Shown: piece by piece, positions 10,608 through 51,140 of the stretch
Layout: each line of letters opens with the position of its first letter
How positions within the stretch are numbered: the stretch's first letter is position 1
Assembly (NCBI GenBank): GCA_965215195.1
Contig: CBDCDC010000001.1
Location: 1,120,001 to 1,184,000, forward strand
Direction of reading: 5' to 3'
Source of the DNA: Candidatus Latescibacterota bacterium
Lineage (GTDB): Bacteria > Latescibacterota > UBA2968 > UBA8231
Length of the DNA: 64,000 nucleotides
Notes under the pieces: model-generated
What the model was told of the DNA's origin: nothing
What the model saw: the letters and a program-made list of their open reading frames with translations, nothing else
Database searches by the model: none
Position numbers and translations under genes: made by a program

Positions 10608-10686
10608 GAAGGCGCGTCTTATGGACTTCGAGAATAGTCTGAACGAAAATCATATCTGAGTGGCGGGGAATCGGACAGGACAGAAG

Positions 10687-31447: not shown

Positions 31448-31589
31448 CGGTCTGAAAATTCCGCGAACCGTCCCTTGTGTAGCAATCTAGGAGCGCGGGC
31501 GTCTCGCCCTCGAAAAACGTTCCAGCCGAGGGCCGCTGGACCGCTACTCAACGCGGTCCGACAGGGCGGTGAAGCAGACCGCTTCTAAG
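31445..31589. mobile_element. MITE-like element, copy 2 (left IR shortened)
   Basis: TAGCGGTCTGAAA...GAACCGTCCCTTGTGT...GGTGAAGCAGACCGCTTCTAAG, colinear with 15386-15562. Confidence 0.72.
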
Positions 31590-31656
31590 GACTCTTCAGT
31601 AACTGATGTTACGCGCCATTCAGGCGTTGGTGCTCCTTGCGCGTCTGTCTAGCAAA

Positions 31657-31684
31657 GTAGGGCATAACGATCGTTATGCCCTAC
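31657..31684. repeat. Perfect 28-bp palindrome
   Basis: GTAGGGCATAACGA|TCGTTATGCCCTAC. Confidence 0.8.
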
Positions 31685-31849
31685 CGTGCTGCCTACTTCA
31701 CGTTTCAGCGGCCCTCAACGTCGAAGCCGGCTTGTCCGGCCAAGCGCGGCAATGACACCCGACCGGTGGCCGCAAGCCGCAGACGCTGTATAAGAGCCTG
31801 CCCCGGCCAAGGCCGGGGATGCGGAACATCCGTTACCGATATGAACCAT

Positions 31850-31925
31850 CCATTGGTGTTCGTCGATCACCCGCTGGGCTTCTCAGCCGGATCGTCCAGC
31901 GACATGAAACACCCCTACTACAAGA
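31850..31925 (-). repeat. ~75-bp dispersed repeat, copy A (inverted relative to 48470-48544)
   Basis: Reverse complement TCTTGTAGTAGGGGTGTTTCATGTCGCTGGACGATCCGGCTGAGAAGCCC...GAACACCAATGG aligns with copy B. Confidence 0.8.
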
Positions 31926-31927
31926 CA

Positions 31928-33442
31928 TTATCGGTTGACCGTAACGCCTGCTGCTTCGAGGGCGGGGATGTGTGTGTTGATTGACTCGGCACTGAGGGTG
32001 GTAACGCCAATCAGAAACAGCCAGTTCAAGTTGGTCAGGCTGAGCAACGGACTCACATCCGTAATAGACGTGCCATTCAGACTCAGCTCTTGCAAGTTGG
32101 TCAGGCTCGTCAACGAAGCCACCCCCGCATCCGTAATGGACGTGAAACTCAGACTCAGCTCTTGCAAGGTAGTCAGGCTCGTCAACGAAGCCACCCCCGC
32201 ATCCGTAATGGACGTGCTACTCAGATGCAGATTTGTCAACTTGGTCAGGCTCGTCAACGAAGCCACCCCCGCATCCGTAATGGACGTGTTACTCAGACCC
32301 AGCCAGTTCAAGTTGGTCAGGCTGAGCAACGGACTCACATCCGTAATGGACGTGAAAGACAGCTCCAGCTCTTGCAAGTTGGTCAGGCTCGCCAACGGAC
32401 TCACATCCGCAAGAGCCGCGTTGTCCTCCAGGTACAGATCAACCAGCGCCGTCGCGTGTTCGAGGCCGGCCAAGCTCTGAATGCTTAGACTGCTTGCTTC
32501 AAGCGTCGTTAGGGACGCCAGATCGTCGGATGTAAGCGCACCTGTCGGTTTACCCAGTGCCTGCCGCACCGCACCCTCTAAGTTGGCGTCGGCGAACGAG
32601 CCGACTGGCGGGGGTGGAGCCGGAGTCGGGGGTGGAGCCGGGGCCGAGGGTGGAGCCGGGGCTGCTGCCGGGGCCGGTGGTTGCGGGTTCGGCAGGACGA
32701 CGGAGACCTTGACGTCCCCTTCTATCAAGGTGGGCACCTGTTCGGCGAGGTCCCCTTGGCGAATGAGATTGTCCACCAAGCCCAGCCAATCCAGCCGGGT
32801 CAGACCATCCAACGCACTCACGTCCGCCACCGCGTTGTGCCCCAAATCCAGCGAGGTCAGCTTCGTCAATCCCGCCAACGGACTCACCGCTTCAATCTGG
32901 TTGCCCCACAGGTTCAGGTAGGTCAGCTTCGTCAACCCCGCCAACGGACTCACGTCCGCCACCGCGTTGCCCCACAGACTCAGCCATTTCAAATTGGTCA
33001 AGCCCGCCAACGCACCCACATCCATCACCTGATTGTGCCCAAGGTTCAGGTGGGTCAGGCTGGTCAAGCCTGCCAACGGACTCAAATCCGCAATCTGGTT
33101 GCCCCACAGGTTCAGCGTGTCCAGCGCCGTCGCGTGTTCGAGGCCGGCCAAGCTCTCAATGCCTGAGACGTCTTGCCATTCTACGTCGAGCTTCGTCAGG
33201 GACGCCAGATCGTCGGCGGTCAGCGGGCCTTCCGGCTTGTTCAGCGTCCGCCGCACCGCAAGCTCTAGGTTGGCGTCGGCAAACGAGACGACAGCGTCCG
33301 ACGGCGTACTATCGGCTTCGGCCTGCCCGAGGGCTTTGCCCGCCGGCACCGGCGCGACCGGCGGATCGGAACAGGCCATCCAAGTAACCACTACGCCTAA
33401 AACGACGACCAAGTAGGCGTTTATTCGCTTCCATAAAGGCAT
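31928..33442 (-). CDS. Internalin-like leucine-rich-repeat lipoprotein, paralog 1 (504 aa)
   Basis: Lipobox WMAC; two FADANLE cap-plus-LRR blocks separated by a Pro/Ala linker; AAGGAGG RBS. Confidence 0.9.
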   Translation of the reverse strand: MPLWKRINAYLVVVLGVVVTWMACSDPPVAPVPAGKALGQAEADSTPSDAVVSFADANLELAVRRTLNKPEGPLTADDLASLTKLDVEWQDVSGIESLAGLEHATALDTLNLWGNQIADLSPLAGLTSLTHLNLGHNQVMDVGALAGLTNLKWLSLWGNAVADVSPLAGLTKLTYLNLWGNQIEAVSPLAGLTKLTSLDLGHNAVADVSALDGLTRLDWLGLVDNLIRQGDLAEQVPTLIEGDVKVSVVLPNPQPPAPAAAPAPPSAPAPPPTPAPPPPVGSFADANLEGAVRQALGKPTGALTSDDLASLTTLEASSLSIQSLAGLEHATALVDLYLEDNAALADVSPLASLTNLQELELSFTSITDVSPLLSLTNLNWLGLSNTSITDAGVASLTSLTKLTNLHLSSTSITDAGVASLTSLTTLQELSLSFTSITDAGVASLTSLTNLQELSLNGTSITDVSPLLSLTNLNWLFLIGVTTLSAESINTHIPALEAAGVTVNR

Positions 33443-33480
33443 TGTTTGCCTCCTTCTACGAAATAAAGGGGTGGATAGAG

Positions 33481-33535
33481 AGGAACAGGAACCGGCCGCC
33501 ATGGCGGACGACGGCCACGACGTACAGACGAATGC
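33481..33535 (-). promoter_or_regulatory. Conserved 55-nt 5' leader of LRR paralog 1
   Basis: 52/55 identical to 48620-48674. Confidence 0.6.
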
Positions 33536-33600
33536 CGCACGGGTAACATGCGGCGCGGGGTGGGACGGATCGCCAAACGGTCGTTTGGGATCCGTCGCCG

Positions 33601-33685
33601 GTGCTTGAGCAGTAGGGAATCTAGCGCTTTAGTGCTTGAGCAGAATTTCGAGGGGGGGGTAAATTATTGTTTTTTAATGACTTAC
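33601..33685. promoter_or_regulatory. Putative regulatory region of the LRR gene: repeated GTGCTTGAGCAG, G8 tract, imperfect palindrome
   Basis: 12-mer at 33601 and 33632; G8 at 33652-33659; GTAAATTATTG...AATGACTTAC at 33659-33685. Confidence 0.4.
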
Positions 33686-33895
33686 GTAACATTTTTTTAG
33701 CAGGTCGAGAATCGGTGGTGTACTCGGTGCGCCACGCGCTGTAAAAGACAAACACAACATCTCACGCCCTTGTATTCTATGGTCGCTACGTGAACAAATC
33801 AAGGGATATTTGAAATTGCAGTCCCCGGATAAAGAGGCAGAACGTCCCCAAAAAATTCAAAGGGACCCACGACCCCTTATTCGTTCGGTAGTGGA

Positions 33896-34102
33896 TTACA
33901 CGGGCGGCGGGGACCGACCGGCGGCGGGCGCGTCGGACCAAGCCAACAGACTTGCTCGAACCCATTGCTCGCCGGATTGGGTGCCATGTGGAATAGGCAA
34001 CGTTGTGATGTCGCGAGCTTTGAATTGCCGTCGGCGCAGAAATCGGCGTACAAACGTGTCTGTGGCCGCGTCCTCGCAGAGCAACGCGATTCGGACGCTC
34101 AT
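33896..34102 (-). pseudogene. Truncated partner of the AAA ATPase (TOPRIM-like start IALLCED)
   Basis: MSVRIALLCED...GTQSGEQWVR then unrelated low-complexity tail; ATGA overlap with the ATPase. Confidence 0.55.
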
Positions 34103-35200
34103 TCCCAGCGTCTTGCTATGACTTCGGACAGAGACAGGCCATCGACGGTATGCTGCGGTTCCTTGCTCACCCGCACCGGGCCGTCTCCATCGCGGAAGAA
34201 CCACCTACCGTTCGCGCCCGCCATGTAATCAATCGTCACGGGGGTGATGCGATGCGACGACAATTTGCCCCAAGGACCGGCCGACCCGCTCGACCGCGTC
34301 GGCGAGATAGGGCTGTACTTCCCCCAAGGCAAGGTAGTTGTCGGGTTCATCGACGAACAGTGAAACGCGGCGGTCCGCGGCGAGATGGAGCAGGCTGTAC
34401 ATGGCAATCAGGGCTCGCTGGCCATCGGAGAGTTGATCGAAACCGTAGCGGATCGGCTCGGGCGACGAGCCGCGAAAAATTGCTTTGAGGGCGCGGGAGT
34501 TCTCTCCAGATTCCGTCAGATTGATCGAGTCGAAACCGGGGAGTGCTTCGCGGAGGGTCTCGAATAGCGAAACGATGGAGCGCATATTCTCTTGTGCAGC
34601 GCGACGATACCAGCCGACGAAGTTCTGCATCAAAGGTTCCAAGAACTCGTCCTCGGTTCTCGTTTCGGCAGACATGATAGGCGGGCAGCAGCTAACGATT
34701 ATATAGTTGGCGATCTCCTTCTTGAACTGCGTTAGCTTCTTATTGTCGATCCTTTCGTTTAAGAAGCCGATCCCGGACTGCGACCAATCGAAGGGATACG
34801 AAGGGCCTTTGGAGTAGTCATCGCGATATAGCTGTGCGTCTCCGTTCTTGAATTCAAAGATCGGGTTGCCGTCGTGTTCAAGCACTTCTTCCCCGACTCG
34901 CATTTTGCTACGAGAGGGATCGTGCTGCACGATGAGCGAATAACGGTAGGTTTCTTCGTTGATGCGGGTCTCAATTTCGAATCGCTGTTCGTTGCGTTGG
35001 CCGTAAAGCGAAATGTCCCGGGCAGGAAACACTGTGTCCACTTTTGAGCCCCGCACAACCAAATTTTGGATGTTCCTGAGCACGTTCAGGACGGAGGTCT
35101 TACCCGTGCCGTTCCGCCCTAGGAAGACGTTCGTCTGGTCGAGATCGAGTTCAAAGTTCTCCAGACAACGGAAGTTGTCCACATAGAGTCTTGACAGCAC
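34099..35200 (-). CDS. ABC-type AAA ATPase (AAA_21-like), one frameshift in a homopolymer near 34242
   Basis: VDNFRCL, GRNGTGKTS, LSDGQR, FVDEPDNYL, ASHHP; continues VTIDY...SEVIARRWE in another frame. Confidence 0.85.
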
Positions 35201-35438
35201 GGGCGTCCCCTTTAGTGGTTGGTTTTTCTATTCGCATCAATGTCGTTGAGATGGTATTGACCTGTCAAGGAGACCGCGACGAGCCGTCCGGCCTTGGGGT
35301 AAGTCTGCTCAGAAGCTCTGGCGTGTACGCGATCGTGCCATCGGCATTGATCGTCGCCGTGCCGTGGGCCGTGGTAGCTGATGTCGCCACCACCGCCGAT
35401 CTCGAAGAGGCCAGCGGCCGCCCACGCACTGAGCCTCC

Positions 35439-37736
35439 TCAGCGCTGCCAATAGTACGACAATTTGAGCTGCAACGAGCGGCTGGCCTGTTGCAGGCCGC
35501 CCTCGGTATCCCAGACCTGATTGTACACGAGGAACAGATCGCTGCCGGGCAGGTAGTGGTAGTTGAACAGGAAATTGCCGCCCACCAGCTCCCGGGTACT
35601 GTTCCACTGCAAAAAGCCGCGCACAAACATGTCGGGCGAGAAGGAATAGAGGAAGCGGTGCCCGAACAGGTGGGTGTTGAAGGCACTGTCGGGCAGGTCG
35701 ATGTTGTTGAACTCGTAGCGGCCTTCTAGCTCTAGGCGGGCATTGTAGCGCCAGACGGCCTCGGTGGAAGCGCGGTGGCGGATGCCGTTGAAAAAATCGC
35801 CGTATTCGCACGAAGCGCGGCCGGAGAAGCGGCGGCTCGAATTGGCGAAAAAACTGAACTGATAGCTGCCAAATTCGTACGCGCCCGGGGGAATTTCTCG
35901 GTCGTCGCGTATGGCAAACGCCTCGTCCAAAAGCTCGTAGCGCTGGCGATAGCGCACCCCGATCCAGTCGCCTATTTCCAAATTGATAAAGGCGGAGAAT
36001 TCAAAATCGCGGCTCTGCAAGGTATTGCCCCGATCCGTCAGGTAGGTAAGGCGCGGCCCAAGCGAAAACATGCGGATCCAGTCGATGGCCGGTCGGGGCC
36101 GGTAGCGCCCGCTGCCTTTGAAGCGGCGGATGTCACTGCGCGGCACAAAGCCCACTTGGGGCGCAAAGTCCTCCTCCACGTCGAGATAGCTCAGGCGGGT
36201 CTCAAAGCGGCTCTGGCGATAGTCCAGCTCCAGCAGGCCGGCCCGGTCGCGGCCTTCCACCGAGGGGGTCCAAGTCTTGGCGGCAAAGCCGCGCAGGTTG
36301 AGGGCGGCTTGCAACAGCGACAGGGTGAAGTCGAAGCCAGCAGTGCGATTGTAGGAAGCCTCTGAGCCGGGTTGCTTGTCGATGGCGATAAAGCCGAGGT
36401 TGGAGCGGCCCAGCAGGTCGCGCTTGAGGCGCAGGACCGCGAAGTCGGTCTGGGCCACGCGCAGGGTGTCGGGGATGTTCAATCGCAGGGTATCGACGAT
36501 GGCGTCCCCGGTCAGCTCTGCTTGGTCCTCGTCGAGCAGGTCGCCATCTGCGGTGACAAAGCGGTCCTCCTCTGCTTCGGCAAAAAAAGTCCCGGCCTGG
36601 GTGGTCATGCGCAGGACACCAATTTGATAGGGGCCAGCCCGTCCGGTGAGTTTGCCGCCGGCCAATACGGACAGGTTGTGCCCTTCTTCAATGCCAATGC
36701 GACGGCTGTAGAACAGCAGGGTGGGGGGCCGACCTCCCGTGCCCTGCCTTTCGACGCGTTCGCCAAACTCAAAAATCCCGGCCCCTTCGAGGAAGAAGTC
36801 GCGCTTTTCTGGGAAGAACAGGCTGAAGCGGGTGAGGTTGATCTGCTCTTGGTCGGCTTCCACTTGGGCGAAGTCGGTTTTGTAGGACAGGTCCAAGGTA
36901 AGGGAGGGCGTGAGGCCGTATTTGAAATCTAGGCTTGGGTCTAGGCCGTATTCAGTGGGGCGGTCGTCCGCGAAATCGCGCTGGATGCCGCTCAGCAAGA
37001 AGGGGACGACCGCTATGGGTGGGCGACTCTGCAACTCACCCAAACCCTTGAGGACGGCCAGCCGCGAGGTGCGGTAGCGGCCCCTAAGACCATAGGATTG
37101 GGGCGGGGGGACCAAGAAGACTTCCTCGTTTTTGCGGCGAATGGCGCGGCCGATGTTAAGGCCCCACACGGCTTGGTCGCTGTCGGGGTAGCGCACCTGA
37201 TCAAAGGGAATGGCCACTTCGGCACTCCAGCCCAAGCTGTCGATCTCGGTGCGACTCTGCCAGACGCTGTCCCAGGCTTGGTTGCGGGTGCGGCCCTCGT
37301 CGGTAAGCAGCAGGTCTTGGCGCGCACCCAAGGGGTTGGTGCTAAAGTAAAAGCCGCCGCGGCGGTCGTTATAGGGATCGAGGATAATCTGGATGTTGTC
37401 GTTTTCGTCCAAGTCGGCGTCGCGCCGCATCTGGTTGGCCACTAGGCGGTCGGCCTCGCTGTCGAAGCAGCGCAGGGCAAAGTACAGATGATCGTCGTCA
37501 AAGAGAATGCGGACTTGGGTCTGCTCGGTGGGCTGGGCCCCTTCGACCGGCTCGCGCTGGAAAAAGTCGGCCATGATCGGGGCTTGGTGCCAGACGGAGT
37601 CGTCGATGCGCCCGTCGATGCTGGGGGGCGCGGGGGTGCGGGTGGCTTGGACGACCGGGATTTCCCGAGCTGGGCCCGGTGCGGCGAGGACCGCTAGAAC
37701 GACGGCACTTTTGGCAATGGACGATAGAGGGTTCAA
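35439..37736 (-). CDS. CBM9-like plus DUF5916 outer-membrane protein
   Basis: PPSIDGRIDD, WSAEVAIPF, DFAQVEAD, RFSLFFPEKRDFFLEG, LFYSRRIG, beta-barrel-like C-terminus. Confidence 0.88.
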   Translation of the reverse strand: MNPLSSIAKSAVVLAVLAAPGPAREIPVVQATRTPAPPSIDGRIDDSVWHQAPIMADFFQREPVEGAQPTEQTQVRILFDDDHLYFALRCFDSEADRLVANQMRRDADLDENDNIQIILDPYNDRRGGFYFSTNPLGARQDLLLTDEGRTRNQAWDSVWQSRTEIDSLGWSAEVAIPFDQVRYPDSDQAVWGLNIGRAIRRKNEEVFLVPPPQSYGLRGRYRTSRLAVLKGLGELQSRPPIAVVPFLLSGIQRDFADDRPTEYGLDPSLDFKYGLTPSLTLDLSYKTDFAQVEADQEQINLTRFSLFFPEKRDFFLEGAGIFEFGERVERQGTGGRPPTLLFYSRRIGIEEGHNLSVLAGGKLTGRAGPYQIGVLRMTTQAGTFFAEAEEDRFVTADGDLLDEDQAELTGDAIVDTLRLNIPDTLRVAQTDFAVLRLKRDLLGRSNLGFIAIDKQPGSEASYNRTAGFDFTLSLLQAALNLRGFAAKTWTPSVEGRDRAGLLELDYRQSRFETRLSYLDVEEDFAPQVGFVPRSDIRRFKGSGRYRPRPAIDWIRMFSLGPRLTYLTDRGNTLQSRDFEFSAFINLEIGDWIGVRYRQRYELLDEAFAIRDDREIPPGAYEFGSYQFSFFANSSRRFSGRASCEYGDFFNGIRHRASTEAVWRYNARLELEGRYEFNNIDLPDSAFNTHLFGHRFLYSFSPDMFVRGFLQWNSTRELVGGNFLFNYHYLPGSDLFLVYNQVWDTEGGLQQASRSLQLKLSYYWQR

Positions 37737-37890
37737 AATACAAGCTCAGGGCCTCTCACTTGAGTGAGTGAAGCACTTGGCTCGTCGTGGAAAATCCCCC
37801 CATCCGGCGCGGACTTGACGGCCTGCAAACACCCAATCCGTGGCCGACGCTACACTTCTGGGGGGTGATAGCGCCTAGGTGCGCAGCAAC

Positions 37891-39201
37891 TCACGGCGCG
37901 AACCGATAGACCACCGGCAACTGGGCGGCGTCTGCGATGCTCGAGTCCGCGTGGTGGTAGATGTTCACGTGCCCGGTGCCGCAGTCGCCGAAATCGTCGC
38001 AGGAGAGTACGCCGATAATCCCCTGAAAGCCATCCGTCGCCCCGACCGCCTCGCGCAGGGCGGCGCGGTCCACGTACAACTTGTCGCCCTGCGCCCTCGC
38101 AACGGATTCGATGGTGCTGAGCAGCACTGTTGTGGCGTCGTACGCGTGCGCCCAGTACGGAGAGGGAGGCGACTCGCCGTACGCGGCTTCGTACGCGGCG
38201 AGCACTTCGTCCGCGTTTTTGCCGGTCGCAGCATTGACATTCGGGCCGTGGTCCGACTCCGGCCCGGCAAAGTACGTGCCCTCTGACTGGGGCGTGCTGA
38301 GGAAATCGGCCACGAGGAGCGCCGCGCCCGCAATGAACGTCGCGCCTTTTAGGCCGTCGAACGCCAGCGCCTGCTCGGCGAAAGACGTGCCTTCCGATTC
38401 AAAGAGCGGAAAGAAGATGCCGTCCGGCGCGGCGGCCGCGAATTCCGCGAGGACGGCCGTCATGTCCGCGTCGCCCTTGTCGAGCCGGGCGGTGGCAGCC
38501 ACCTCGCCGCCGAGGGCGCGGAACGCATCGCCAAACGCGCTCACGAGGGCCGCGGTGTACGGGTCGCCGTCGTCAACGGCCACCATGCGCCGCAGGCCCA
38601 GTTCACTGTAGGCGAAGTCGGCGACGGCTTGCGCCTGATAGAGGTCGTTGTTAGAAGTGCGGAAATAGCCGGGGTGGTAGGCGGGATTCGCATTGCCGGC
38701 GAGGTCGGACGTGAGCAAAGGCGACGTGTTGGACGGCGAGATCATCACCAGCCCGGCCTCGCTGATAAGCGGTGAGGCTACCACGGCCGCGGCCGAGCAC
38801 GACGTGCCGACGACGCCTATCACCTGTGAATCGGCCGTGATTTGCTCGGCACCCGCACGTCCGCCCTCGGCCGAGCACATGCTGTCCATAGACTCGCCGA
38901 GGTCGATCGCGCGACCGTGGATGCTGCCGAAGTCGCGCACGGCCAACTCAACGCTGTGCCGCAACACCCTACCCAGCGAGGCCGCGCCCGTGATCGAGAA
39001 CAGCGAGCGGATCTGCACGGCCTCGCCAACCTCAACTGCGCCGAGTGGTTGGCGCCGCGGCTCAGCTAGCCCGGCGACGGGGGTGCTGGTCCAAGTGATG
39101 CTGCTGGTTATGCGCTTGGCGGCCGCCGCGACTGGATCGCGCTCAGAACATGCGCCTAGGGTCAAGGAGCAGGTGAGCAAGAAAAACAGAGCGAATTGCA
39201 C
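37891..39201 (-). CDS. Branched-chain amino acid ABC-type substrate-binding lipoprotein (LivJ-like)
   Basis: LGAC lipobox; GVVGTSCS, MISPSNTSP, YFRT, AHAYDA. Confidence 0.88.
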   Translation of the reverse strand: MQFALFFLLTCSLTLGACSERDPVAAAAKRITSSITWTSTPVAGLAEPRRQPLGAVEVGEAVQIRSLFSITGAASLGRVLRHSVELAVRDFGSIHGRAIDLGESMDSMCSAEGGRAGAEQITADSQVIGVVGTSCSAAAVVASPLISEAGLVMISPSNTSPLLTSDLAGNANPAYHPGYFRTSNNDLYQAQAVADFAYSELGLRRMVAVDDGDPYTAALVSAFGDAFRALGGEVAATARLDKGDADMTAVLAEFAAAAPDGIFFPLFESEGTSFAEQALAFDGLKGATFIAGAALLVADFLSTPQSEGTYFAGPESDHGPNVNAATGKNADEVLAAYEAAYGESPPSPYWAHAYDATTVLLSTIESVARAQGDKLYVDRAALREAVGATDGFQGIIGVLSCDDFGDCGTGHVNIYHHADSSIADAAQLPVVYRFAP

Positions 39202-39292
39202 TGCATGGACCTCCTATGGAATTGGGCCAATGCCTTGGTTAGTGGTAGCGAAGCGCGCGGCGCGAATCGATAAACCCCTGCGCCCCTTCTGT

Positions 39293-39850
39293 CTAAAAGC
39301 GACTTTTGAGCTGTCCCCAGGACTGTCCTGTAACTGCCGTAGAAGCGGATTCTGGATAAAAGCCAGAGCCCAAGATGAAATTTTGGCCGAGGGCGGCATA
39401 GGGAATGACATAGCTCACTTTCGGCGAGCCGATTTCTTCGTCCCCTTCTACCAGCGGATCGGGCCAAAGATACTCGACGTAGCCGCCGCCCTCAGCCGCC
39501 GCTGCGATAAACTCTTGGACAAATTTGACTCCATTGGCGTCTTCGAGATCATACAAGTCTTGGCCTTCGAGGTCTGGATTATCCGCGTGAAAAATTGCGG
39601 TGCCCTCGGTGGTCAGGACGAATAGATAGATGGATCCATACTTCCAAGTTTCTTCCGTTCTGAGTTCCTGCAAGACACTTATGTACTCGGGAAGGGTCGT
39701 GGCGTTATCTGCGTACGCCTTGGCCGCGAGTACAAAGGCTTTCAGGGTTTCCCGGTCCACCACATCACTGGCCGTTATCTCCGAGTCTTGAGCCACCGCG
39801 GGCAAGAGGCTGGCCAGCGTTAGAATGAATACTGCGATTAGACTCCTCAT
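39293..39850 (-). CDS. Secreted standalone single Cache-domain protein with C-terminal WGxLK motif
   Basis: Signal peptide; GSIYLFV, DANGVKFVQE, GGYVEYLWPDP, PKVSY, LGSGFY; tail TAVTGQSWGQLKSRF. Confidence 0.85.
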   Translation of the reverse strand: MRSLIAVFILTLASLLPAVAQDSEITASDVVDRETLKAFVLAAKAYADNATTLPEYISVLQELRTEETWKYGSIYLFVLTTEGTAIFHADNPDLEGQDLYDLEDANGVKFVQEFIAAAAEGGGYVEYLWPDPLVEGDEEIGSPKVSYVIPYAALGQNFILGSGFYPESASTAVTGQSWGQLKSRF

Positions 39851-40075
39851 GGTGATCTCCTCTCTTTTGTTGAGAATTGTGAACGATATGGGATAAGGTA
39901 CGACCGATTCTTAAAAAAATCTATTGGATACGCCGCCTGCAAAAGCACTTCCCAGACCCCCCCAATGCGGCTACCCCCTGATGATCATCTAAATTCATTG
40001 ACAAGCTAATGAGGCCAAACGTAGCTTAGTCCCGACAACGCTAACCTTCCCATCCGCCGAAAGAGAGGGTGCAAA

Positions 40076-41255
40076 ATGACTACCGATCAATCTCCGGCAA
40101 AGGAGACCTACCGCGCCACAGCTTTTGCCGACTCCAAGCCCGAACTCGCCGCTCCCGGGGCTACGCCCGAGCGGTTGGACCACTTGCGGGAGCATGGTTT
40201 CGTCATCATCACCGACTTTGTCGATAACCCGTGGATCCCCGTTCTGCGCGAGGCCGGCCGCCGCGTCACCGAGGCGTGTGCGCCCGAGCACGGCTACGGC
40301 AAGATCGACTGCTCAAAGGGCTACGTGCATCGTGCGGGCGGCAATGAGCCGTGGGCGATTCGGGGCCTCATCCATCCCGCTTTTGAGGAGCCTTGCTTTG
40401 CCGAGTTCCACGGCTCGGACGACTTCCTAAACTTCGTCGCCTCTTGGTGCAACGGGCTTGGGCCTGAAGATGTGGTGCTGAGCGGTCTGCTGCTGTGGTG
40501 CAATCCCCGGCGGCACGAGAATGGCCCCAGTTGGCACCGCGACGTGACGTGGTGGGGCAGCGGCAAGCCCTACTTTTCGCAGCGGGACGACCGGGGAGAA
40601 GGCCCGGAGGATTATTCCGAGGAAGTCGAAAAAATCCGCTGGGCAGAAATCTGCGCCAACAACGCCAAGGTGCTCACTGAGCGGAACGGCGTGAGCATGT
40701 TCTTGGCGCTGGTTGACGACGAGTGCCACGAGCTCATACCCGGCAGTCACGAGCGCTGGCGGACGCCGTTTGAGCACGATGTGCTGCTGCCGCAAGCGAT
40801 GAAGGACCAAGGGGTGCCGCACACCCCCAGTTGGAACAGGGTGGACCCGTTGCCGGGCCAGGTTTCGATCCGGCTCAAGCCCGGGGAAGCGCTCATCCGC
40901 AATGGGGGTCACGATCCACACCGGGCACACCGTCCCCGAGCGCGAGCGCAACACCTTGTCCATCGGCTGGTCAAAGTGGTCGGGTCCGTTCACCGGGGAG
41001 CCGTCCGTAGCGGACGCGCGCAACGCGTGGCAACTCGATCCGGCCGTGCGAGAGGCGTTGCCGCACGAGTGGATGCAGACCGCGTGGGATCGTTGGGCCG
41101 AGACCCAAAAATTAGGGGATACGCTCGAGGATCGGTACGCGGGGTTTGATATTCAGCGCATCAAAGCGGGGGAAGTCGTGGGTTGGCGCAGCGAACTGGA
41201 GCGCCAAGCGGCTGCCGCTGGCGAGGCGTGGGAGCGGTTTCAAACGGTGGCGTGA
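40076..41255 (+). CDS. PhyH-like dioxygenase (frameshift at G5 near 40905)
   Basis: LREHGFVII, SWHRDV, LIPGSH, LKPGEALIRNG|VTIHTG. Confidence 0.75.
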
Positions 41256-42081
41256 CGCTCGTCCGCCTCTCTTTTCGCTAGTGCCGCCTTGCGCTCGACA
41301 AACGCCGGCGGCGGGGGCGTGAGGATCGCGCGTTTGCGCTCATCTACCCCTTGCCATGGGTCGGCGTCCGTTGAGCTGAAAAAGTTATTCGGGCCGGAAT
41401 AGGCTTCCTCGCGCACCATGTACTTGTAAAAAAGCGTGGTCCGCGTGCTCGGCGCTGTCCACGGCAGCGTGACGTGACACAGGGCCTCGGTGAAGATAAT
41501 GGCACTGCCGGGCCGGGCCGGCACGCGGGTGACCATCGGATGCACGTCCTTGGACAAATCGACCCACGCTTGCGGACGGGGTAATGCCCCTTGTGCGATC
41601 CCGCCAAACAGCCGAACCCACCCCCGTTGCAAACGGTATCCTCCAGGCTCATACGCCACGGTGACCAGACCATTGGAGAAAGTCCCGCTTGCGGGATCGC
41701 GCGCGAAGTAATGCGTGATTAGCTCATGCGGCCGATTGGGACTTAGCAAGCGCCCATTGCCGCCGTGGATGGTTCCTCCGGCGAGATTTTTGTCGAAGGT
41801 GCCGTGCGTGTGCACGTTGATATGGTCGATGCGGAAGGGCGGGCGCCCGTCGGCTCGTTGGCCACCGTAGATTTCTGCTAGGACTTCCGAAACTACCGGA
41901 ACGTCCAGTAAATCGACGAAAGCCTGCGACCAGAAGCCGCCTCGATCGGCGTGCTGCGAGTGGAGTTGCGGGCCTTTGGCATCGACGGTGGCCTTGAGAT
42001 CGGCAACCTGCTCGGGCGTGATCGCATCCTCTACCGCGAGGAAGCCCACGTGTCAAAAGCAAAGCGCTGTTCTTCGTTCAT
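41240..42081 (-). CDS. PhyH-family enzyme with HGG motif (about three single-base frameshifts)
   Basis: Reconstructed MNEEQRFAFDTWGFLAVEDA...TIHGGNG...GGFGCLAGSHK...FTEALCHVT..RTTLFYKY. Confidence 0.75.
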
Positions 42082-42457
42082 TTGTAAACCCCCACTTGGT
42101 TAATTGCAGTCGACCTGCAAGGTGTAATTTGGCTGCCTGCCCCACGGGCGAAATGCCATACTGGCGCAGCGCATCCTCCAAGGTCGGCCGACGAAGGCGA
42201 AGGCGCTCGTCGCTCAGCAAATAAGAGGACACGCAGTCAAGCATCAGGATCCCGATCAGAAAGCAATAGCTCGTCAGCCCCTCGGGACCTACTCCACGCT
42301 TTCAGGCGAGCTTATCGGTCGCGGGTCAAGCTCGTTTGCTGCATAGTGGACGCCGGCCCGATCGCGGCAATGCGGACTTTGGGGTGGACTTGCGGCGGCT
42401 TTTGGCAGTTTTTTGGGACGACCCATCCCACCACCCGCCAGAACCATAGGAGCCTCT

Positions 42458-44428
42458 ATGCAAGCTCTCACCTCCCGCGCGCCCACCCTCCCGCCGACCC
42501 CGCGCCCGCGCGTTGCCTATTACGACTTGGGCATCCCCTTTGTAGGGGCTGTGTGGAACGGCTTCTCAATCACCTACGACCCTGCCAATGGGCACACCCT
42601 CGCTTGGGGTGCCGAATTCTCCCAAGACGGGGCCTACTACTTTTGCAACGATCTCGACACCGGCGGCTTGGAAGTCTTTCCCATGCCTTGCCGCGAGCAC
42701 GGCCCGGTCTTCCAAGCCCAAGACGGCACCATTTACGCCCGGATCATGTCCGGCCTGTCGGTTGATCACGGCCACCATCTCATGGTCTTTGACGCCCAAG
42801 CCCGCACCTTCAGCAGTCTGGGGCGTCCCGCCCCCGGCGATCAGCGCCTCCTCTGCATGGAGGAGCGCGACGGCCTGTTGTACATGGGCGGCCACGAACT
42901 GGCCGAACTGTTCTGCTACGACCCGCAAAAGCGGCGCTTTGACAAGCTCTGCCGCCCGTTTGCCCCGCCCACCGACCGCCTAGTACGCATCCAATTGCTG
43001 CCCGATGGTCGGCTGCTGCTCATCGGCTATCCGGCCGTCCCGGCCAAAAATCTACGATGTGGAAAGCGGTCACCTGAGCGATGTACCGCCCGCAGCCGAG
43101 GGGATTGCCGGCGCGGTGTGCGAAGGGGATCGCCTGTTTTTGGCGGCTGGCGATCAAGTGCGCGTCCTCAACGCCGATTTCGCCGAAGTGGCCCGCCTCG
43201 ACAGCCCGGTTGCCGGCGCGGCGCTGGTGCCTTTAGCCTTGGGCCGCAACAGCCGCGCTAGGGTGTACGCTTGGGCTGGGGATCAATTGGTGGCCATTGA
43301 CGCCCATACCTTGGACATCCGCTCCATTTGCGAGGGGCCTTTCGCCGGCATATCCGGGCTGAGCAAAGACGGCCATTTGGTCTTCGCCCAAGTCGAGGAG
43401 GGCCGCGCCACTATGGTAATCCCGATACTGGCGACCGGGAAGAACGCAGTTTTGCAGTCTATCAAGGCCGCCGCGGCAGCGCGGTATGCGCCCTAGGGAA
43501 AGGGCCTGATGGCAAAATCTACGGCACCAACATTTACGGCATGCACCTGTGCGCCATAGATCCCGATACCGATGCAATAGACGATTTGGGTTACACGTGG
43601 TGCGGCGGCGAACTCTACCACGTCCACGCCCACCAAGACAAGCTCTACGTTGGCAGCTACGGTGCTCCAACATTGGCGTGTACGACCGAGTCGGCCGTGG
43701 CAGCCCGGCGCGGCGTGCGGCAGCAATCCGCGCAATTGGGGTCCGTTGGGCCAAAACCAGAACCGACCCTTTGAAGCAGTGACCGGTCCCGACGGCCGCA
43801 TTTATGTGGCCAACCGCAGCAATTATGGCATTCCCGGCGGCGGGCTCGCCTCGTACGATCCGCCACCGGCCTCGAGCACCGGGAAATCTTTCTCGACCCG
43901 CAACAAAGCGTACAATGCGTAGCCGCGGACCAACGCTATGTGTACGGTGGCACCAGCATTTACGGGGGCCGCGGCGCGAAAATCACCACCGCCGACGGCC
44001 TGCTATTCGTCTTTGACCCCAGACTAAACAGCGCATTTGCCAACTGCGGCCGGTGGAAGGCGCCAACACGGTCACTAGCTTGGGCCGTCCACCCCTCGGG
44101 GCTGGTTTTTGGCAGCACGGACAACCGCCGCTTGTTCGTTTTTGACCCGCAGCGGTTTGTCATAGAAGAAGTGCTGGGCCCCTTGCGCTCGGAGGGGACT
44201 AGGTTGATGGGGGTGCCCGAAGGGGTGGAGATGTTCCCGCTGATTTGCGCCGCCGATGGCTTTATCTACGGCCTGACGCGCTTTGACCTGTTCCGCCTAG
44301 ACGGCTCGTCCCGCGTCCTCACCTATCTCAACGATCCGCCCCTGCCCGAACTCTACGCCCTGACCGAAGGAAAGGCCCGGTGTGCTTTACATGAGCGCCG
44401 GTACCCACGTCATCAAGTTGCCTGCTGA
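42458..44428 (+). CDS. Beta-propeller repeat protein, broken by several frameshifts
   Basis: AGGAG RBS; consecutive ORF pieces with propeller motifs GPDGKIYG, LYVGSY, GPDGRIYV, ADGFIYG; end uncertain. Confidence 0.65.
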
Positions 44429-44473
44429 GGCCGCCGCCCTTTTACCGCTGAGATTCTGGGGGAAGCGGGTTCG

Positions 44474-45268
44474 CTATGCGTTTATGGCTTCCCGCACCAC
44501 CCGTCCGGCCCAATCCCGCGCTGGTGCCACTGCTAGCAAAGCGGCAATAGTCGTCGGGTTGTCAATGATGCTCACCGGCTCCTGCAAACGCCGCCCGGGC
44601 AGCACCCCAGGACCGGCGATCACCCACGGAATGGTCATGTCCTCGTCCATTTCCGTGCCGTGGGTGCGCTCGTGCCCGCCGTGGTCGCTGGTGACGACGA
44701 CCGCGGTCTCTTCCCGGTTGACCGCCTCCAACACCGCGCCAATGGCCGCATCGGCCCGCCCAACAGCGGCCAAATACTCGGCCGACATCCAGCCGTGGTC
44801 GTGGCCGGCTACATCGGTGCAGCCTAGATAGACAAAGGCGAAATCGGCCGTCCATTCCCGCAGCGCGGCCGCGGCCAAGCCGGCCAATTGCCAGTCGCCG
44901 TCCGGCTCGTGGCAATTGTTCACATAGTACGAGCGGTCCAGCGAGCCCGGGTCGGCCAGATCGCGCAATGGCTCCCAATTGTAGAAGAAGGCCGTGCGCT
45001 TGCCAGCTTGGTGCAGCACGTCGACTAGGCTGGGCACTGGTCTGACTTGGGGCACCCAAGTGTTGGTGGTAATGCCGTGCCGTTGTGGGGTCACGCCGCG
45101 AAACATAGAGGTGTGGCAGGGCAAGGTGGACGAGGGCATTACGGTGCGGGCCGCATAGGTGCTGGCACCCTCGCGGATCAAGCGGTCGATGCAGGGGGTG
45201 GAGGCCTGTTGCAAGCCGTCGGGCCGCAGCCCGTCGATGACAAAGAGGATGAGGCGTCGCGGGGACAT
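44474..45268 (-). CDS. Alkaline phosphatase superfamily (nucleotide pyrophosphatase/phosphodiesterase-like)
   Basis: FVIDGLRPD, PSSTLPCHTSM, DVAGHDHG, VTSDHGG. Confidence 0.88.
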   Translation of the reverse strand: MSPRRLILFVIDGLRPDGLQQASTPCIDRLIREGASTYAARTVMPSSTLPCHTSMFRGVTPQRHGITTNTWVPQVRPVPSLVDVLHQAGKRTAFFYNWEPLRDLADPGSLDRSYYVNNCHEPDGDWQLAGLAAAALREWTADFAFVYLGCTDVAGHDHGWMSAEYLAAVGRADAAIGAVLEAVNREETAVVVTSDHGGHERTHGTEMDEDMTIPWVIAGPGVLPGRRLQEPVSIIDNPTTIAALLAVAPARDWAGRVVREAINA

Positions 45269-45306
45269 GGGATTCCTTTCTTTAGGGGTGGTATCTACTG
45301 AGGCGA

Positions 45307-46371
45307 TCACGCGCTGGCGTACAGCCCGGCATCGTGCGGTTTTAGCGGATACCTCGGTACTACACCTTGGTTGACGATGTTTTCCGGCGCGGGCCAGTGG
45401 CCCTTGAGGACGGAGGCCAGATTGCAGACGCCCGTGCGCGCCACGTCTTCGCCAGACTGCACTGAGTGGGCGGAGACGTGGGAGGTCATCAGGACGTTGT
45501 CCAGCGCCATGAGGGGATGCTGCGGGGTTTGCTCCTCGTCCGTGAACACGTTGAGCCACTCGTAGGTATCCAGCGCCGCGCCGGCCAGTGGCCCCTCCCG
45601 CAGTACCCGCGCCAGCGCCTCTTCATCTACCAAGGCACCGCGAGACGTGTTGATTAGGTAGGAGCCCGGCTTCATTTGGCGCAGCAGCTTCTCGTCGAAC
45701 AGGTGGTAGGTGTTTGCGTTTAGGGGCAACTGCAAGGAGATGAAGTCGGACTCGGCAAGTAGCGTTTTTAGGTCCACCATCTCGACGTCCAAGTCGGCCG
45801 GCAGGGGAGCCTGTAGGTTTCTGCGCGTGGCCAAGACCCGAAGGCCGAAGGCCCTAACGCGGCGGGCGACCATCGCGCCGGTGGCTCCGAAACCCACGAT
45901 GCCCAGCACACAGGTGGACAGCCGCTGCAACTGGGTGGCCTCGGCGCGGGCTTGGCGGAAGCGGCCGGCGCGCATGAACCGTTCCATGCGCGGCAGTTGG
46001 CGGGCGAGGGACAGCAGCATGGCCATGATGTGGTCGGTCATTTCCTCGGCGCAGAAGAGGGGGGCATTGGAGACGACGATGCCGCGTTCCGTAGCCTTTG
46101 CCACGGCGATTTTATCGGTGCCGTTGCCGAGGCGCGAGATCAGGCGACAGCGGTCCAGCGATGCGATTACGGCCGCTGGCAAGCCGGTTGAGACAACGGC
46201 GACCGCGTCGCAGCCGGCCAGCCGGCGAATGAGTGCCTGCGGGTCCTCCTCCTCGACGTATTCGGGTGCGATGCCAAACTGGGCGTACAGCGATCGCTCC
46301 AGCGCGCTGGTTGGGTACAGGGTGGCGTTGAGGCGGACGAAGCGGAAGGGGGATGTGGTGTTAGGCACCAT
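45307..46371 (-). CDS. D-2-hydroxyacid dehydrogenase (CtBP-like)
   Basis: GIVGFGATG, LINTSRG, AALDTYE, MTSHVSA. Confidence 0.9.
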   Translation of the reverse strand: MVPNTTSPFRFVRLNATLYPTSALERSLYAQFGIAPEYVEEEDPQALIRRLAGCDAVAVVSTGLPAAVIASLDRCRLISRLGNGTDKIAVAKATERGIVVSNAPLFCAEEMTDHIMAMLLSLARQLPRMERFMRAGRFRQARAEATQLQRLSTCVLGIVGFGATGAMVARRVRAFGLRVLATRRNLQAPLPADLDVEMVDLKTLLAESDFISLQLPLNANTYHLFDEKLLRQMKPGSYLINTSRGALVDEEALARVLREGPLAGAALDTYEWLNVFTDEEQTPQHPLMALDNVLMTSHVSAHSVQSGEDVARTGVCNLASVLKGHWPAPENIVNQGVVPRYPLKPHDAGLYASA

Positions 46372-46380
46372 GACGGATTT

Positions 46381-46408
46381 CAGTGGTTAGTGGCCAGTGG
46401 TCATTGGT
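46381..46408. repeat. Four degenerate heptamer tandem repeats
   Basis: CAGTGGT TAGTGGC CAGTGGT CATTGGT. Confidence 0.5.
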
Positions 46409-46466
46409 TCGTCCCAGCCCGCCCCCTCGGGAGCGGTAGGAACCGGCCGCGGAGGGATGCAGACTG

Positions 46467-47330
46467 TCACCAGGCCACTTCCATCCTGTCCTGCGCCCAG
46501 TACACAGGCCCGCTGAAGGTGCTTTTTACCTCGGCGATTCCTTGGGTGGTCTCTTCTGCGGGGTCGAGGGTCGGGGACTGGTGGTTGATTACCAAGCGCT
46601 TGGCACCGGCCTCGGCGGCCATGCGCCCGGCATTGAGGGTGCCAGTTTCGGAGATGACGCTGGGGAAGGTTTGGATCTTTTCTTCCCGATGCACGGCCTC
46701 CATCACGAACAGGTCTGCGTCCCGGGCTAGCTCGACCACGGACTCAATCGGCGCGGTATCGCCGCTGAAAGCAACGACGCCTTCTGCGGTCTCAAAGCGG
46801 AAGCCATAGCACTCAATGTACGGCTGGGCATGCTTGACCTCGCGCGCATAGCAGGTCCAGCCTTCTCCGGCGGCCACTTTTCCCTCGGCGTATTCGGCTG
46901 CGTGAACCACTGGTTCTGGCCTAAAATCGCCCACGCCGCCGCGCATCCGGTAGGCGTGGACGCTCATGGGATGATGGGTGCGGGCGATCACGTCGTACCA
47001 GAAGAGGCCATTGGGGCTCCAGAGGCCGTCGGTGATGCGCTTGATGGGAGCCGGCCCGTAAACGTGCAGATCGGGTTCGGTGCCGATGCACTGGTCGAAG
47101 CGCGTCATCAGGAAGCAGAGATAGTCGGAGATGTGGTCGGAGTGCAGGTGGGTGAAAAACAGATTGTGTACTGAAGTGCAGGGGATGCCCATGCGGTGCA
47201 TCTTGAAGGTTGATGCCGGGCCGCAGTCGATCATCAGCCGCTGGCCGCAGATTTCGAGAATGAAACAGGTGCCCCAGCGGTCGGGAGTGGGGGTGGGCGT
47301 ACCGGCACCGACAATTTTTAGCTTTGGCAT
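46467..47330 (-). CDS. MBL-fold metallohydrolase (RNase Z/arylsulfatase-like)
   Basis: GAGTPTP, IDCG, THLHSDH, FSGDT, LVINH. Confidence 0.88.
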   Translation of the reverse strand: MPKLKIVGAGTPTPTPDRWGTCFILEICGQRLMIDCGPASTFKMHRMGIPCTSVHNLFFTHLHSDHISDYLCFLMTRFDQCIGTEPDLHVYGPAPIKRITDGLWSPNGLFWYDVIARTHHPMSVHAYRMRGGVGDFRPEPVVHAAEYAEGKVAAGEGWTCYAREVKHAQPYIECYGFRFETAEGVVAFSGDTAPIESVVELARDADLFVMEAVHREEKIQTFPSVISETGTLNAGRMAAEAGAKRLVINHQSPTLDPAEETTQGIAEVKSTFSGPVYWAQDRMEVAW

Positions 47331-47582
47331 GGAATAGTCTCCGAAGCGCACGAAAAAATAAACTACTCCGCCGCAAGCAGCGGGGTATTGGAAATTCGTT
47401 CATCGGTATAGAATACGCCGCAAGCGGCCGGGTATTCAACCCGAAGAGAATAAATGGGCATTATTGGCAGGGGGTCAAGCTGGTCGGCGGGTATTTGCAC
47501 AATGGTTTCTTGCGGGAAAATAGTGGAAAGAAATCCTTCCCGCAGGTGTTGAGCGTGGTATTTTTAGGACGAGAACCTGTCA

Positions 47583-48005
47583 GTGCTTACTATCCGGGAG
47601 AATCCGACCTTGAGATTCGACACGCAAAAACTGCCCGCCACCTCTGACGTGACCGCTCCCGACGGCGCGGAGGTGCGCGTTCTGCTGGGCCTGCAAGGCG
47701 GCGGCATGGCGCATTTTGAACTCCAGCCCGGCCAGACATCCAAGGCCGTTGCCCACCGCACGGTCGAAGAGATCTGGTTTTTCCTCGCCGGGCGCGGCCA
47801 GATGTGGCGGCGGCAGGACGAGCGCGAGGAAATCGTGGCGGTTGAGCCGGGCGTCTGCCTGACCATTCCGCTGGGCACCCACTTCCAGTTCCGCGCCTTG
47901 GGCGCCGAGCCGCTGGCCGCAATCGCCGTTACCATGCCTCCGTGGCCCGGCGAGGACGAAGCCTATCCGGTCGAGGGCAGGTGGCCGGCGACTACGGCCC
48001 ATTAG
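47583..48005 (+). CDS. Cupin domain protein
   Basis: APDGAEVRVL, AHRTVEEIW, IPLGTHFQFR, TMPPWPG; start uncertain. Confidence 0.85.
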   Translation: MLTIRENPTLRFDTQKLPATSDVTAPDGAEVRVLLGLQGGGMAHFELQPGQTSKAVAHRTVEEIWFFLAGRGQMWRRQDEREEIVAVEPGVCLTIPLGTHFQFRALGAEPLAAIAVTMPPWPGEDEAYPVEGRWPATTAH

Positions 48006-48082
48006 GCGGCGGGATATTGACTCCATTGAGCGTAGATGTAAACTGTAATTACCTCAACCGATGCAAATAAGGAAAACGCCTC

Positions 48083-48442
48083 ATGAAATCCTATCTCTTT
48101 ACGTTCAGCCAACCCTGCACACAGGCGCAGGCGCATGCTGCTCTCAACGACACTGAGGGAATTCAAACATGGGTCGCGCCGTTTCCGTATTCCGCTATCC
48201 TCGTCTCCAGACTTAATGCTCAGGACCTTAGCGCGATTCTTCGCGAGCGACTGCCTAACGATGTGTGGTTCATGGTCGCAGAAATGGATCACCAGACCGT
48301 AGATGGCTGGCTGCCCGGAAACCTATGGGAGTACGTAAACGATCCGCAGAAGGCGTGGTCTCGGCAATTGATCAGGACTATCGCCGATCCAAAGTATCTC
48401 CGTCGTCCCGTCGCAGATGCCGACAGAATGGCGCGGACGTAG
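48083..48442 (+). CDS. Hypothetical protein (small ferredoxin-like fold, GWLP motif)
   Basis: AAGGA RBS; lower GC; DGWLPGNLWEY. Confidence 0.65.
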   Translation: MKSYLFTFSQPCTQAQAHAALNDTEGIQTWVAPFPYSAILVSRLNAQDLSAILRERLPNDVWFMVAEMDHQTVDGWLPGNLWEYVNDPQKAWSRQLIRTIADPKYLRRPVADADRMART

Positions 48443-48469
48443 AGGTATCTTTCTAAAAGACTCTAACCA

Positions 48470-48544
48470 TCTTGTAGTAGGCTGTTTCATGTCTCTGGAC
48501 GATCCCGCTGAGAAGCCCATCGGGTGATATACGAACACAAATGG
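48470..48544 (+). repeat. ~75-bp dispersed repeat, copy B
   Basis: TCTTGTAGTAGGCTGTTTCATGTCTCTGGACGATCCCGCTGAGAAGCCC...GAACACAAATGG. Confidence 0.8.
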
Positions 48545-48619
48545 AACAACTAGCACTATATGGTTAATACCTATAAAAAAATATGCTAAAACAGGTTCAC
48601 GCCTGTTGACACCCATCTC

Positions 48620-48674
48620 GCATTCGTCTGTACGTCGTGGCTGTCGTCTGCCGTGGCGGCCGGTTCCTGTTCCT
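48620..48674 (+). promoter_or_regulatory. Conserved 55-nt 5' leader of LRR paralog 2
   Basis: 52/55 identical to the reverse complement of 33481-33535. Confidence 0.6.
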
Positions 48675-48708
48675 GATTCCTCAAACCGTTTATAGAAGGA
48701 GACAAACA

Positions 48709-50355: not shown

Positions 50356-50423
50356 TGAATGGTGCGCCGCTTGCTACGCGATACCAGCCCTTCGTGGGGG
50401 CCCCACAGGGGTCGTGAAGGCCG

Positions 50424-51011: not shown

Positions 51012-51140
51012 TTCCAGCGAGGTTAGCGGACAGCACGCTCCAGTACAGCCGCCGTCTCAATAACGACGTGGCACACGGTATAAGACCATGAACGGGGCCA
51101 TGGCCCAGCAATTAGTGGTGCTGGCGCGAGCTAAGTACGT

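Follow-up and report, generated by a model that had tools for sequence, protein, structure and literature searches.

Systems of the fimS and Hin type are site-specific invertible promoters, and the sap locus of Campylobacter fetus is an inversion system of surface-protein homologs. In the sap locus, oppositely oriented homologs with conserved 5′ regions flank a promoter-carrying segment, and a crossover in the 5′ regions changes the 3′ part that is expressed. A locus of similar outline occurs in the genome of a Candidatus Latescibacterota bacterium (coded G000), of which the assembly comprises 6.13 Mb in two contigs, C1 and C2, with 60% G+C. We analyzed 64,000 nucleotides (nt) of this genome, C1:1120001-1184000 (the window; positions without a contig name refer to it), in which two inverted repeats of about 75 bp, A and B, enclose 16.5 kb and lie next to two genes for putative leucine-rich repeat (LRR) lipoproteins, LRR1 and LRR2. 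A preliminary description of this DNA had interpreted the pair as the mark of a past inversion or as a switch for surface-protein variation. The analysis suggests that A and B are probably two of 14 conserved tails of one LRR gene family and not the ends of an invertible element. The inverted repeat would thus be a look-alike of the ends of a 16.5-kb switch, formed by the conserved flanks of an amplified surface-protein family. Such look-alikes can be recognized by copy count, by homology that continues beyond the repeat and by comparison with relatives, which spares a false lead.

The locus shares features with several described systems and differs from each of them. The oppositely oriented homologs with conserved 5′ parts are as in sap; in contrast to sap, a single orientation is established here, the paralogs are dispersed over two contigs, several have upstream regions of their own, and the enclosed segment consists of housekeeping-type genes. 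The Listeria internalin genes, which NCBIfam matches below threshold bring to mind, likewise form sets of many LRR paralogs, some in tandem, with a conserved signal peptide, leader and 3′ flank and with mosaic similarity. Unlike these, the proteins found here reach just 177-201 bits where the internalin cut-offs stand at 1600, and a Pro/Ala linker connects their two LRR blocks, which differ in period; the family moreover expanded in one species of an uncultured genus only. Repetitive extragenic palindromic (REP) elements and miniature inverted-repeat transposable elements (MITEs) are also short intergenic repeats in both orientations, whereas the repeat studied here is tied to one gene family and lacks a stable fold. 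In Mycoplasma agalactiae the vpma locus is described as a multigene lipoprotein switch with Xer1 (PMC5634654). Inverted repeats beside surface-protein genes are common to fimS, Hin, vpma and the present locus, but here the repeat is part of a longer flank, ordinary genes fill the segment, and no recombinase gene is near. For the C-stretch of Bordetella fim genes, tract lengths of 10-15 for fim2 and 13-18 for fim3 are described as altering transcription (PMC1891110). A long C tract at a fixed site of a conserved upstream module, with a length that differs among near-identical copies (7-21 C), also precedes genes of the present family; the difference is that it lies 115-385 nt before the start codon.

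The repeat pair and its gene family

The arrangement given in the preliminary description was confirmed in its main dimensions (Table 1). By blastn, A and B form an inverted pair of 77 nt with 89.6% identity and one 1-nt indel (E 4e-22); a repeat finder gave shorter arms of 66 nt at 89% (31849-31914 and 48480-48545), and the longest exact run common to both copies is 13 nt. LRR1, on the minus strand, and LRR2, on the plus strand, point away from each other. A starts 2 nt beyond the stop of LRR1, at 31925 after a coding sequence that ends at 31928, and B ends 163 nt ahead of the LRR2 ATG, where about 165 bp had been stated. The inverted 5′ similarity between the two genes, put at about 800 bp before, amounts to about 850 nt in total, since the 703-nt match of the N-terminal blocks is joined by two further inverted matches that reach into the leaders (71 nt at 89% and 75 nt at 84%). 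In addition, the last 74 nt of the two genes match at 93%, and the longest exact runs are 81 nt in the N-blocks and 42 nt in the C-blocks. The geometry of the proposed flip was likewise correct, as inverting the DNA between A and B yields LRR1, repeat, leader and LRR2 in that order, and the poly-G stretch that had been described upstream of LRR1 is present as eight G on the plus strand.

To count the repeat (75-mer) in the genome we used whole-genome blastn at E ≤ 1e-4; four matches of 16-23 nt (E 0.024-0.29) were dropped as chance. The genome holds 14 copies, 13 of them directly behind the 3′ end of an LRR family gene or gene remnant. Eleven follow the stop of an intact family gene on the same strand, at an offset of 3-29 nt in ten and of 151 nt in one, and two are partial and stand right behind LRR 3′-end remnants (C1:925176-925238 and C2:1006310-1006408). 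Five copies, B included, are followed by the next LRR start within 54-164 nt, and the four others of these lie between one family stop and the next start, 54-110 nt on. This junction layout is seen in a tandem array of seven genes (C2:229078-243908) and in a gene pair (C2:4112622-4116454), which agrees with the earlier statement that B stands at the position of a tandem LRR gene junction. The genome-wide count that had been proposed as a check thus upheld the association with LRR genes, and the alternative of a high-copy REP without such a link did not hold. The 75-mer keeps strictly to LRR sequences, unlike a generic REP. The array itself contains LRR genes of 469-648 amino acids (aa) with both long and short intergenic junctions, and is a likely source layout for units such as LRR2.

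The homology does not end with the 75-mer. In A and five other copies it runs about 250 nt further, through a G+C hairpin and a 40-nt palindrome. From A to position 31598 the genome contains five long matches of 79-97% identity; the best agreement, 97% over 328 nt, is between 31925-31598 and C2:2710924-2711247. The palindrome at 31651-31690 folds at −28.3 kcal/mol (z −5.8), and the end point of the flank is identical in four dispersed copies. Within the array an upstream region begins right where the 3′ flank ends, and the intergenic DNA of the family, of which several variants with internal deletions occur, reaches a length of about 900 nt. The 75-mer is conserved about as well as the last 60 nt of the family genes. 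On the gene side, most family genes have a small palindrome, AATGAA-AACC-TTCATT, that overlaps their stop codon; it occurs at 31926-31945, 50353-50360, C2:230730-230744 and other copies. This stop-codon hairpin is a hot spot for breakpoints, with three copies, A among them, lacking exactly 11 nt and two partial copies having a 16-nt deletion just after it. The repeat therefore sits at the same end of the family members and its homology goes on into both gene and flank. A dedicated switch site, as the preliminary description had considered, does not fit with 14 copies and with A running on unbroken into a family flank of about 330 nt; the inverted repeats do bound a segment of DNA, but they are not specific to it.

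Searches for a structural or coding function of the 75-mer itself gave no signal. Its fold was not unusually stable (z −0.2 and +1.5), none of 20 predicted pairs covaried, and Rfam gave no match in 30000-52000 at E up to 1. With 14 copies, linkage to LRR genes and no stable hairpin it does not behave as a REP or MITE. A small open reading frame (ORF) of 12 codons, noticed by eye in the 75-mer, was rejected because two copies have an 8-nt deletion and the substitutions follow no codon pattern. A degenerate 32-letter core gave no matches in a set of metagenome contigs that possibly lacks the genome of the window.

The number of genes that retain the family N-terminus, found by tblastn with the first 75 residues of LRR1, is 18; two of them are truncated, one of these two with an internal TAG. 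The 18 genes all code for LRR proteins whose signal peptide is lipoprotein-like, and C-terminal remnants also occur in the genome. LRR1 and LRR2 match the LRR_4 model of Pfam, LRR1 with E 3e-48. The repeat periods of 66 nt and 72 nt correspond to the blocks of 22 and 24 residues in both proteins, and an ..AC/S motif read by eye makes their signal sequences lipoprotein-like. The ATG of LRR1 is preceded by AGGAGG and that of LRR2 by an AGGAGG/AGGAGA-type site; an upstream in-frame start of LRR2, GTG at 48637, has no ribosome-binding site. The inverted 5′ halves, which the preliminary description had treated as a property of this pair, are indeed present but are common to the whole family. LRR2 is a mosaic with nine different nearest paralogs over 18 sliding windows, and LRR1 is the nearest in just two of these.

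The two genes appear to represent two different forms in which the family occurs. LRR1 seems to be a complete dispersed unit (31598-33951) that has 88% full-length identity to C2:1521310-1523692, and its own 3′ flank would begin with A. LRR2 (48470 to about 50360) looks like one array period in another phase, standing alone. At its 5′ side, 48470-48573 is 93% identical to C2:737704-737601 and C2:237834-237929, a 28-nt extension past the 75-mer, and the leader 48637-48708 matches C2:233269 and C2:235799 at 94-96%. At its 3′ side the family homology stops at TAATGAA, 5 nt past the stop codon; no 75-mer follows, and 50356-51100 has no match elsewhere in the genome. We found no LRR remnant in 47900-48470 by tblastn with both LRR proteins at E up to 10, so that B is preceded there by no detectable family gene.

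These data suggest a tandem array as the ancestral arrangement, with a period of one gene plus an intergenic region that would comprise the stop-codon hairpin, the 75-mer, up to about 250 nt more of 3′ flank and up to about 510 nt of upstream region. LRR1 would then be a dispersed unit with its whole 3′ flank, and LRR2 a single period with a 5′ junction of 75-mer, spacer and 89-nt leader and with nothing family-like after its stop. Each unit was probably inserted on its own, the two facing opposite ways, at one of two variable intergenic sites in a region otherwise conserved in the genus, and the inverted pair A/B would be accidental for that reason. The family may have spread by duplication and by ectopic recombination with gene conversion among paralogs.

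Comparison with relatives supports this reading. We searched 40 relatives with 20 kb of DNA and five single-contig genomes of the genus (G001, G009, G010, G018 and G022) with the flanks, and then compared the junction loci by blast. In G009, G010 and G018 the genes are found in the order GH20-like gene, DUF5916 gene, solute-binding protein and further genes up to MBL-fold, (cupin) and GNAT, all with the strand arrangement of the window, though insertions, the largest of about 195 kb, separate some of them. The left flank has another location in G001 and G022, where the inner segment and right flank are colinear. The segment is thus colinear with the right flank in five of five relatives and with the left flank in three of five. 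LRR1, A, B and LRR2 are absent at these sites in all five. G009 has 20 bp between the cupin and GNAT genes, the other relatives have 575-1250 bp and the window has 2445 bp, and at the LRR1 side the family homology ends at 33951 and homology with G010 resumes at 33952. The synteny check that had been suggested hence returned one orientation, in favor of no flip, in genomes that have neither LRR unit. Because the segment is colinear with its flanks in relatives and both LRR units are absent from them, the present orientation would be the ancestral one. GC skew, a weak test, showed no sign change bounded by A and B.

The family is also confined to this lineage. The genus set comprised 31 genomes, G000 and 30 others, and the 77-mer occurred in G000 alone. 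At >65% identity the subfamily was found in G000 and as a single 67% ortholog in G018, which has no 75-mer and whose homology breaks off within the stop-codon hairpin. LRR genes of other families are widespread in the genus, with matches at E ≤ 1e-20 in 23 of 30 genomes, and a search of genome contigs with LRR1 gave three loci only, at 25-33% identity. One species of an uncultured genus has therefore amplified a single LRR lipoprotein gene to 18 copies, with 29 of 30 congeners lacking the subfamily.

Table 1. Positions of the features discussed, in window coordinates unless a contig is named.
Feature	Position	Strand	Remarks
High-copy intergenic repeat, unrelated to LRR	31446..31593		abuts end of LRR1 unit; 57 genome matches
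Full conserved 3′ flank of LRR1 unit	31598..31927	(−)	A, CCCCGGCC/GGCCGGGG hairpin and 40-nt palindrome 31651-31690; sharp end ...GTAACATCAGT
Repeat copy A	31849..31925	(−)	first 77 nt of family 3′ flank of LRR1; one of 14 genome copies
LRR1 gene, 504 aa	31928..33442	(−)	signal peptide ending ..MAC/S, 22-residue LRR block, Pro/Ala linker, 24-residue LRR block
Inverted match of N-terminal LRR blocks, left arm	32676..33378		right arm 48761-49463; 703 nt, 92%
Family upstream region of LRR1 unit, ~510 nt	33443..33951	(−)	89-94% to six other family loci; leader hairpin 33493-33517
Poly-C tract (G8 on plus strand)	33652..33659	(−)	in module ...TAAGTCATTAAAAAACAATAATTTA-C8-TCGAAATTCT, 217 nt before LRR1 ATG
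Inner segment, ordinary genes	33952..48011		AAA_21 ATPase, DUF5916/CBM9, solute-binding protein, Cache, phosphodiesterase, 2-hydroxyacid dehydrogenase, MBL-fold, cupin
ORF119	48083..48442	(+)	directly before B; single-copy in G000; no Pfam/NCBIfam match
Repeat copy B	48470..48545	(+)	sole copy without LRR coding sequence before it
Junction-type spacer and short leader of LRR2	48546..48708	(+)	leader hairpin 48638-48662; without poly-C module
LRR2 gene, 548 aa	48709..50355	(+)	LRR_4 E 8e-61; family homology ends ~50360 (TAATGAA)
Further tract sites in G000	C1:899242, C2:738923, C2:1044234, C2:1523394, C2:1554310, C2:2044163, C2:2640104, C2:2709299, C2:4650256		same module
Module loci in genus	L041-L072; window module 33620-33700		copies read

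Alternative explanations of the inverted pair

The explanation that best survives beside that of shared family tails, although we regard it as unlikely, is a recombinational switch. Homologous recombination between the inverted N-halves, or less likely between A and B, would flip about 15-16.5 kb and thereby move the poly-C upstream region from LRR1 to the C-terminal block of LRR2. The arrangement of the genes would suit such a process, since divergent paralogs with a long conserved 5′ part flank the segment as in a sap-type switch, and LRR1 has a poly-C upstream region where LRR2 has only a short junction leader without a promoter. However, the N-block is common to all 18 paralogs, so any pair could recombine; nine family-type copies have a poly-C region of their own, which makes a shared promoter unnecessary; LRR2 in its present position could be transcribed from a promoter-like site before ORF119; and the orientation of the reference is that of the relatives. 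The earlier statement that the window contains no recombinase gene holds for the tyrosine and serine types. None was found with Pfam among 49 of the 52 non-overlapping window ORFs of at least 110 aa, and the three unscanned ones overlap longer ORFs in other frames. A single DDE transposase gene is present in the window, at 28102-29097.

Several observations weigh against the interpretation as family tails and were considered for the switch. They come mostly from public sequencing runs that contain the segment, 24 in number with no RNA run listed, all stored as contigs and apparently metagenomic; the contigs break at the borders of repeated units, the word depth of the LRR genes is 10-30 times that of the single-copy interior, and what follows refers to the contig pieces listed. 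One contig of run X1 (depth 209, shorter side 42 nt) joins the LRR1 stop at 31926 to the start of B at 48470 on the opposite strand, which is the product expected of a crossover between A and B, and the assembly contains no paralog in which a 75-mer like that of B (≥92%) follows the 2-nt spacer. Two chimeras join N-block and C-block on opposite strands, 32667 to 49499 (X1, side 53 nt) and 32609 to 49507 (X4, side 38 nt), with both joints in the low-complexity linker. The 81-nt exact run in the N-blocks would in principle be enough for homologous recombination. Furthermore, the relatives belong to other species (about 88-92% DNA identity) and are silent on switching within this population.

Of these three opposite-strand joints, one is thus unexplained by paralogs in the assembly. 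On the other hand, the joints have sides of 38-53 nt that are multi-copy or of low complexity, they come from mixed metagenomes, and no reciprocal junction was among those listed. With 18 paralogs and several strains the joints could be explained by other family members or by other strains, and we weighed them in favor of a switch without taking them as proof. Among the pieces listed, none reaches from unique DNA on one side to unique DNA on the other across a complete 77-mer or LRR gene. A contig of run X4 covering 45290-48509 is uninformative on orientation because the junction from ORF119 to the start of B is the same either way. Homologous recombination between LRR1 and LRR2 is conceivable; that the two genes are joined by inversion at present is unsupported.

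A more ambitious version would make the family a programmed system of surface variation in three layers, with poly-C slippage at about nine units, LRR2-like promoter-less cassettes bounded at the stop-codon hairpin, and N-block recombination that shuffles C-blocks. LRR1 and LRR2 would then form an invertible node of the sap kind and the X1 and X4 joints would be its products. We consider this combination improbable.

Another possibility, which we rate as quite improbable, is that the stop-codon hairpin and the 75-mer together act as a recombination site that bounds mobile LRR cassettes, with LRR2 as an array period that was excised and re-inserted. The LRR2 unit, which runs from ..AACCATCTTGTAG to TAATGAA, has both borders in or beside the hairpin, and the 11-nt and 16-nt deletions, the end of the G018 homology and the one sharp 3′ end of four dispersed units are compatible with such a site. 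Borders of this kind would recall an integron-like gene cassette, which requires an integrase and a recombination site at either border. Nevertheless, replication slippage and deletions are common at hairpins in general. The units have ragged upstream borders, the match at the left border is only 4-6 nt and needs an indel, and none of the units examined in the window has a recombinase linked to it. The insertion found only in G000 moreover includes unrelated DNA, namely ORF119 and 96 nt after LRR2.

Least probable is a past inversion of 16.5 kb that split a tandem LRR1-repeat-LRR2, one of the two readings of the preliminary description. In its favor, B has a tandem-junction layout and the flip would restore an arrangement seen elsewhere in the genome. 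However, a single A-B inversion after arrival of the LRR genes would have left the ancestral genes inverted relative to their flanks, which the gene order in the relatives contradicts, and A is continuous with a full-length 3′ flank, which could not have stayed whole had one ancestral repeat been broken.

The poly-C upstream module

If the A/B pair consists of family tails, variation of the LRR proteins may have another source. In the upstream region of LRR1 a homopolymer occupies a fixed site in a conserved module. At the same site in nine family-type copies the tract has 8, 9, 10, 14, 14, 14, 15, 17 and 21 C; five copies have interrupted tracts, and the junction-type genes, LRR2 included, lack the module. 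The genome contains 18 G/C runs of at least 10 nt, and nine of these are in the module, three of the nine preceding non-family ORFs. The pattern AAAAACANNNNNTTACCCCCCC occurs 12 times in G000 and in 14 of the 31 genus genomes, with 29 copies in G046, 21 in G004 and 13 in G042; its reversed control gave no occurrence in any genome. In G046 and G045 the module stands in front of genes for LRR lipoproteins that belong to other subfamilies.

We read 32 copies, one each from 12 genomes and 20 of the 29 in G046, and found tracts of 7-21 C; copies in G046 with near-identical flanks have 7-20 C. The lengths are those of assembled sequence, where a long homopolymer can be miscounted by 1-2 bases, and they are compared between paralogs and species. 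None of the 12 indels listed, out of 41 in the run contigs, was at 33652-33659. This length pattern is that of a slippage-prone tract and makes the module a candidate slipped-strand contingency promoter. Poly-C slippage appears to be a better-supported route to surface variation than inversion, and the family would vary mainly in this way. If the tract slips, surface LRR proteins would be switched on and off one by one, a contingency-locus strategy that has so far been documented mainly in pathogens. More generally, the module TAAGTCnTTnAAAAACAnnnnnTTA-C(7-21)-GAAAATTCT was observed upstream of genes for LRR lipoproteins and of a small number of ORFs for other secreted proteins; a genome can hold as many as 29 copies.

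The family 5′ leaders carry a second element, a conserved hairpin with a 10-bp stem followed by GTTCCTGTTC about 50-75 nt before the start, at 33493-33517 on the minus strand and 48638-48662 on the plus strand. This leader hairpin could be an attenuator or a stability element.

Genes and repeats around the two units

Junction-type genes are probably co-transcribed with their upstream neighbor, which for LRR2 would be ORF119. A sequence scan gave a candidate promoter-like site at 48017-48044 before ORF119; counts in sigma-70-type promoter scans were not above those of shuffled sequence. The DNA of ORF119 has an 81% match in G018, at a different place, and a query of the same metagenome contigs, with the reservation made above for that set, gave no relative. 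A contig of run X5 (depth 6.6, shorter side 34 nt) skips 706 nt (47908-48615) and passes from the interior of the cupin gene to the LRR2 leader, without ORF119 and B. This contig may represent a strain variant or a mapping artefact.

On the other side of the locus, the repeat at 31446-31593 is the true high-copy element of the region. It measures about 120-145 nt, has its blastn matches over both contigs, lies between the GH20-like gene and the LRR1 unit, and contains a terminator-like hairpin at 31521-31540. It was considered as a driver of LRR dispersal and rejected, being within 300 nt of just two of the 14 LRR loci. The DDE transposase gene mentioned above (DDE_5/DDE_Tnp_1) lies 2.7 kb to the left of A, and its DNA matches three places in G022 at 92%, which suggests an active-looking insertion sequence family in the genus.

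Genes for AAA_21/AAA_15 ATPases, of a kind seen in anti-phage systems, are located at 34229-35200 on the minus strand and at 10660-11772 on the plus strand. Their matches to the NCBIfam models of MADS3 and PtuA are weak, N-terminal and far below cut-off. The gene at 34229-35200, which adjoins the LRR1 unit, is present in G010 and not in G009. A GmrSD_N fragment and HSDR_N, PIN and Schlafen/AlbA_2 proteins are encoded elsewhere in the window, suggesting a defence-rich variable region.

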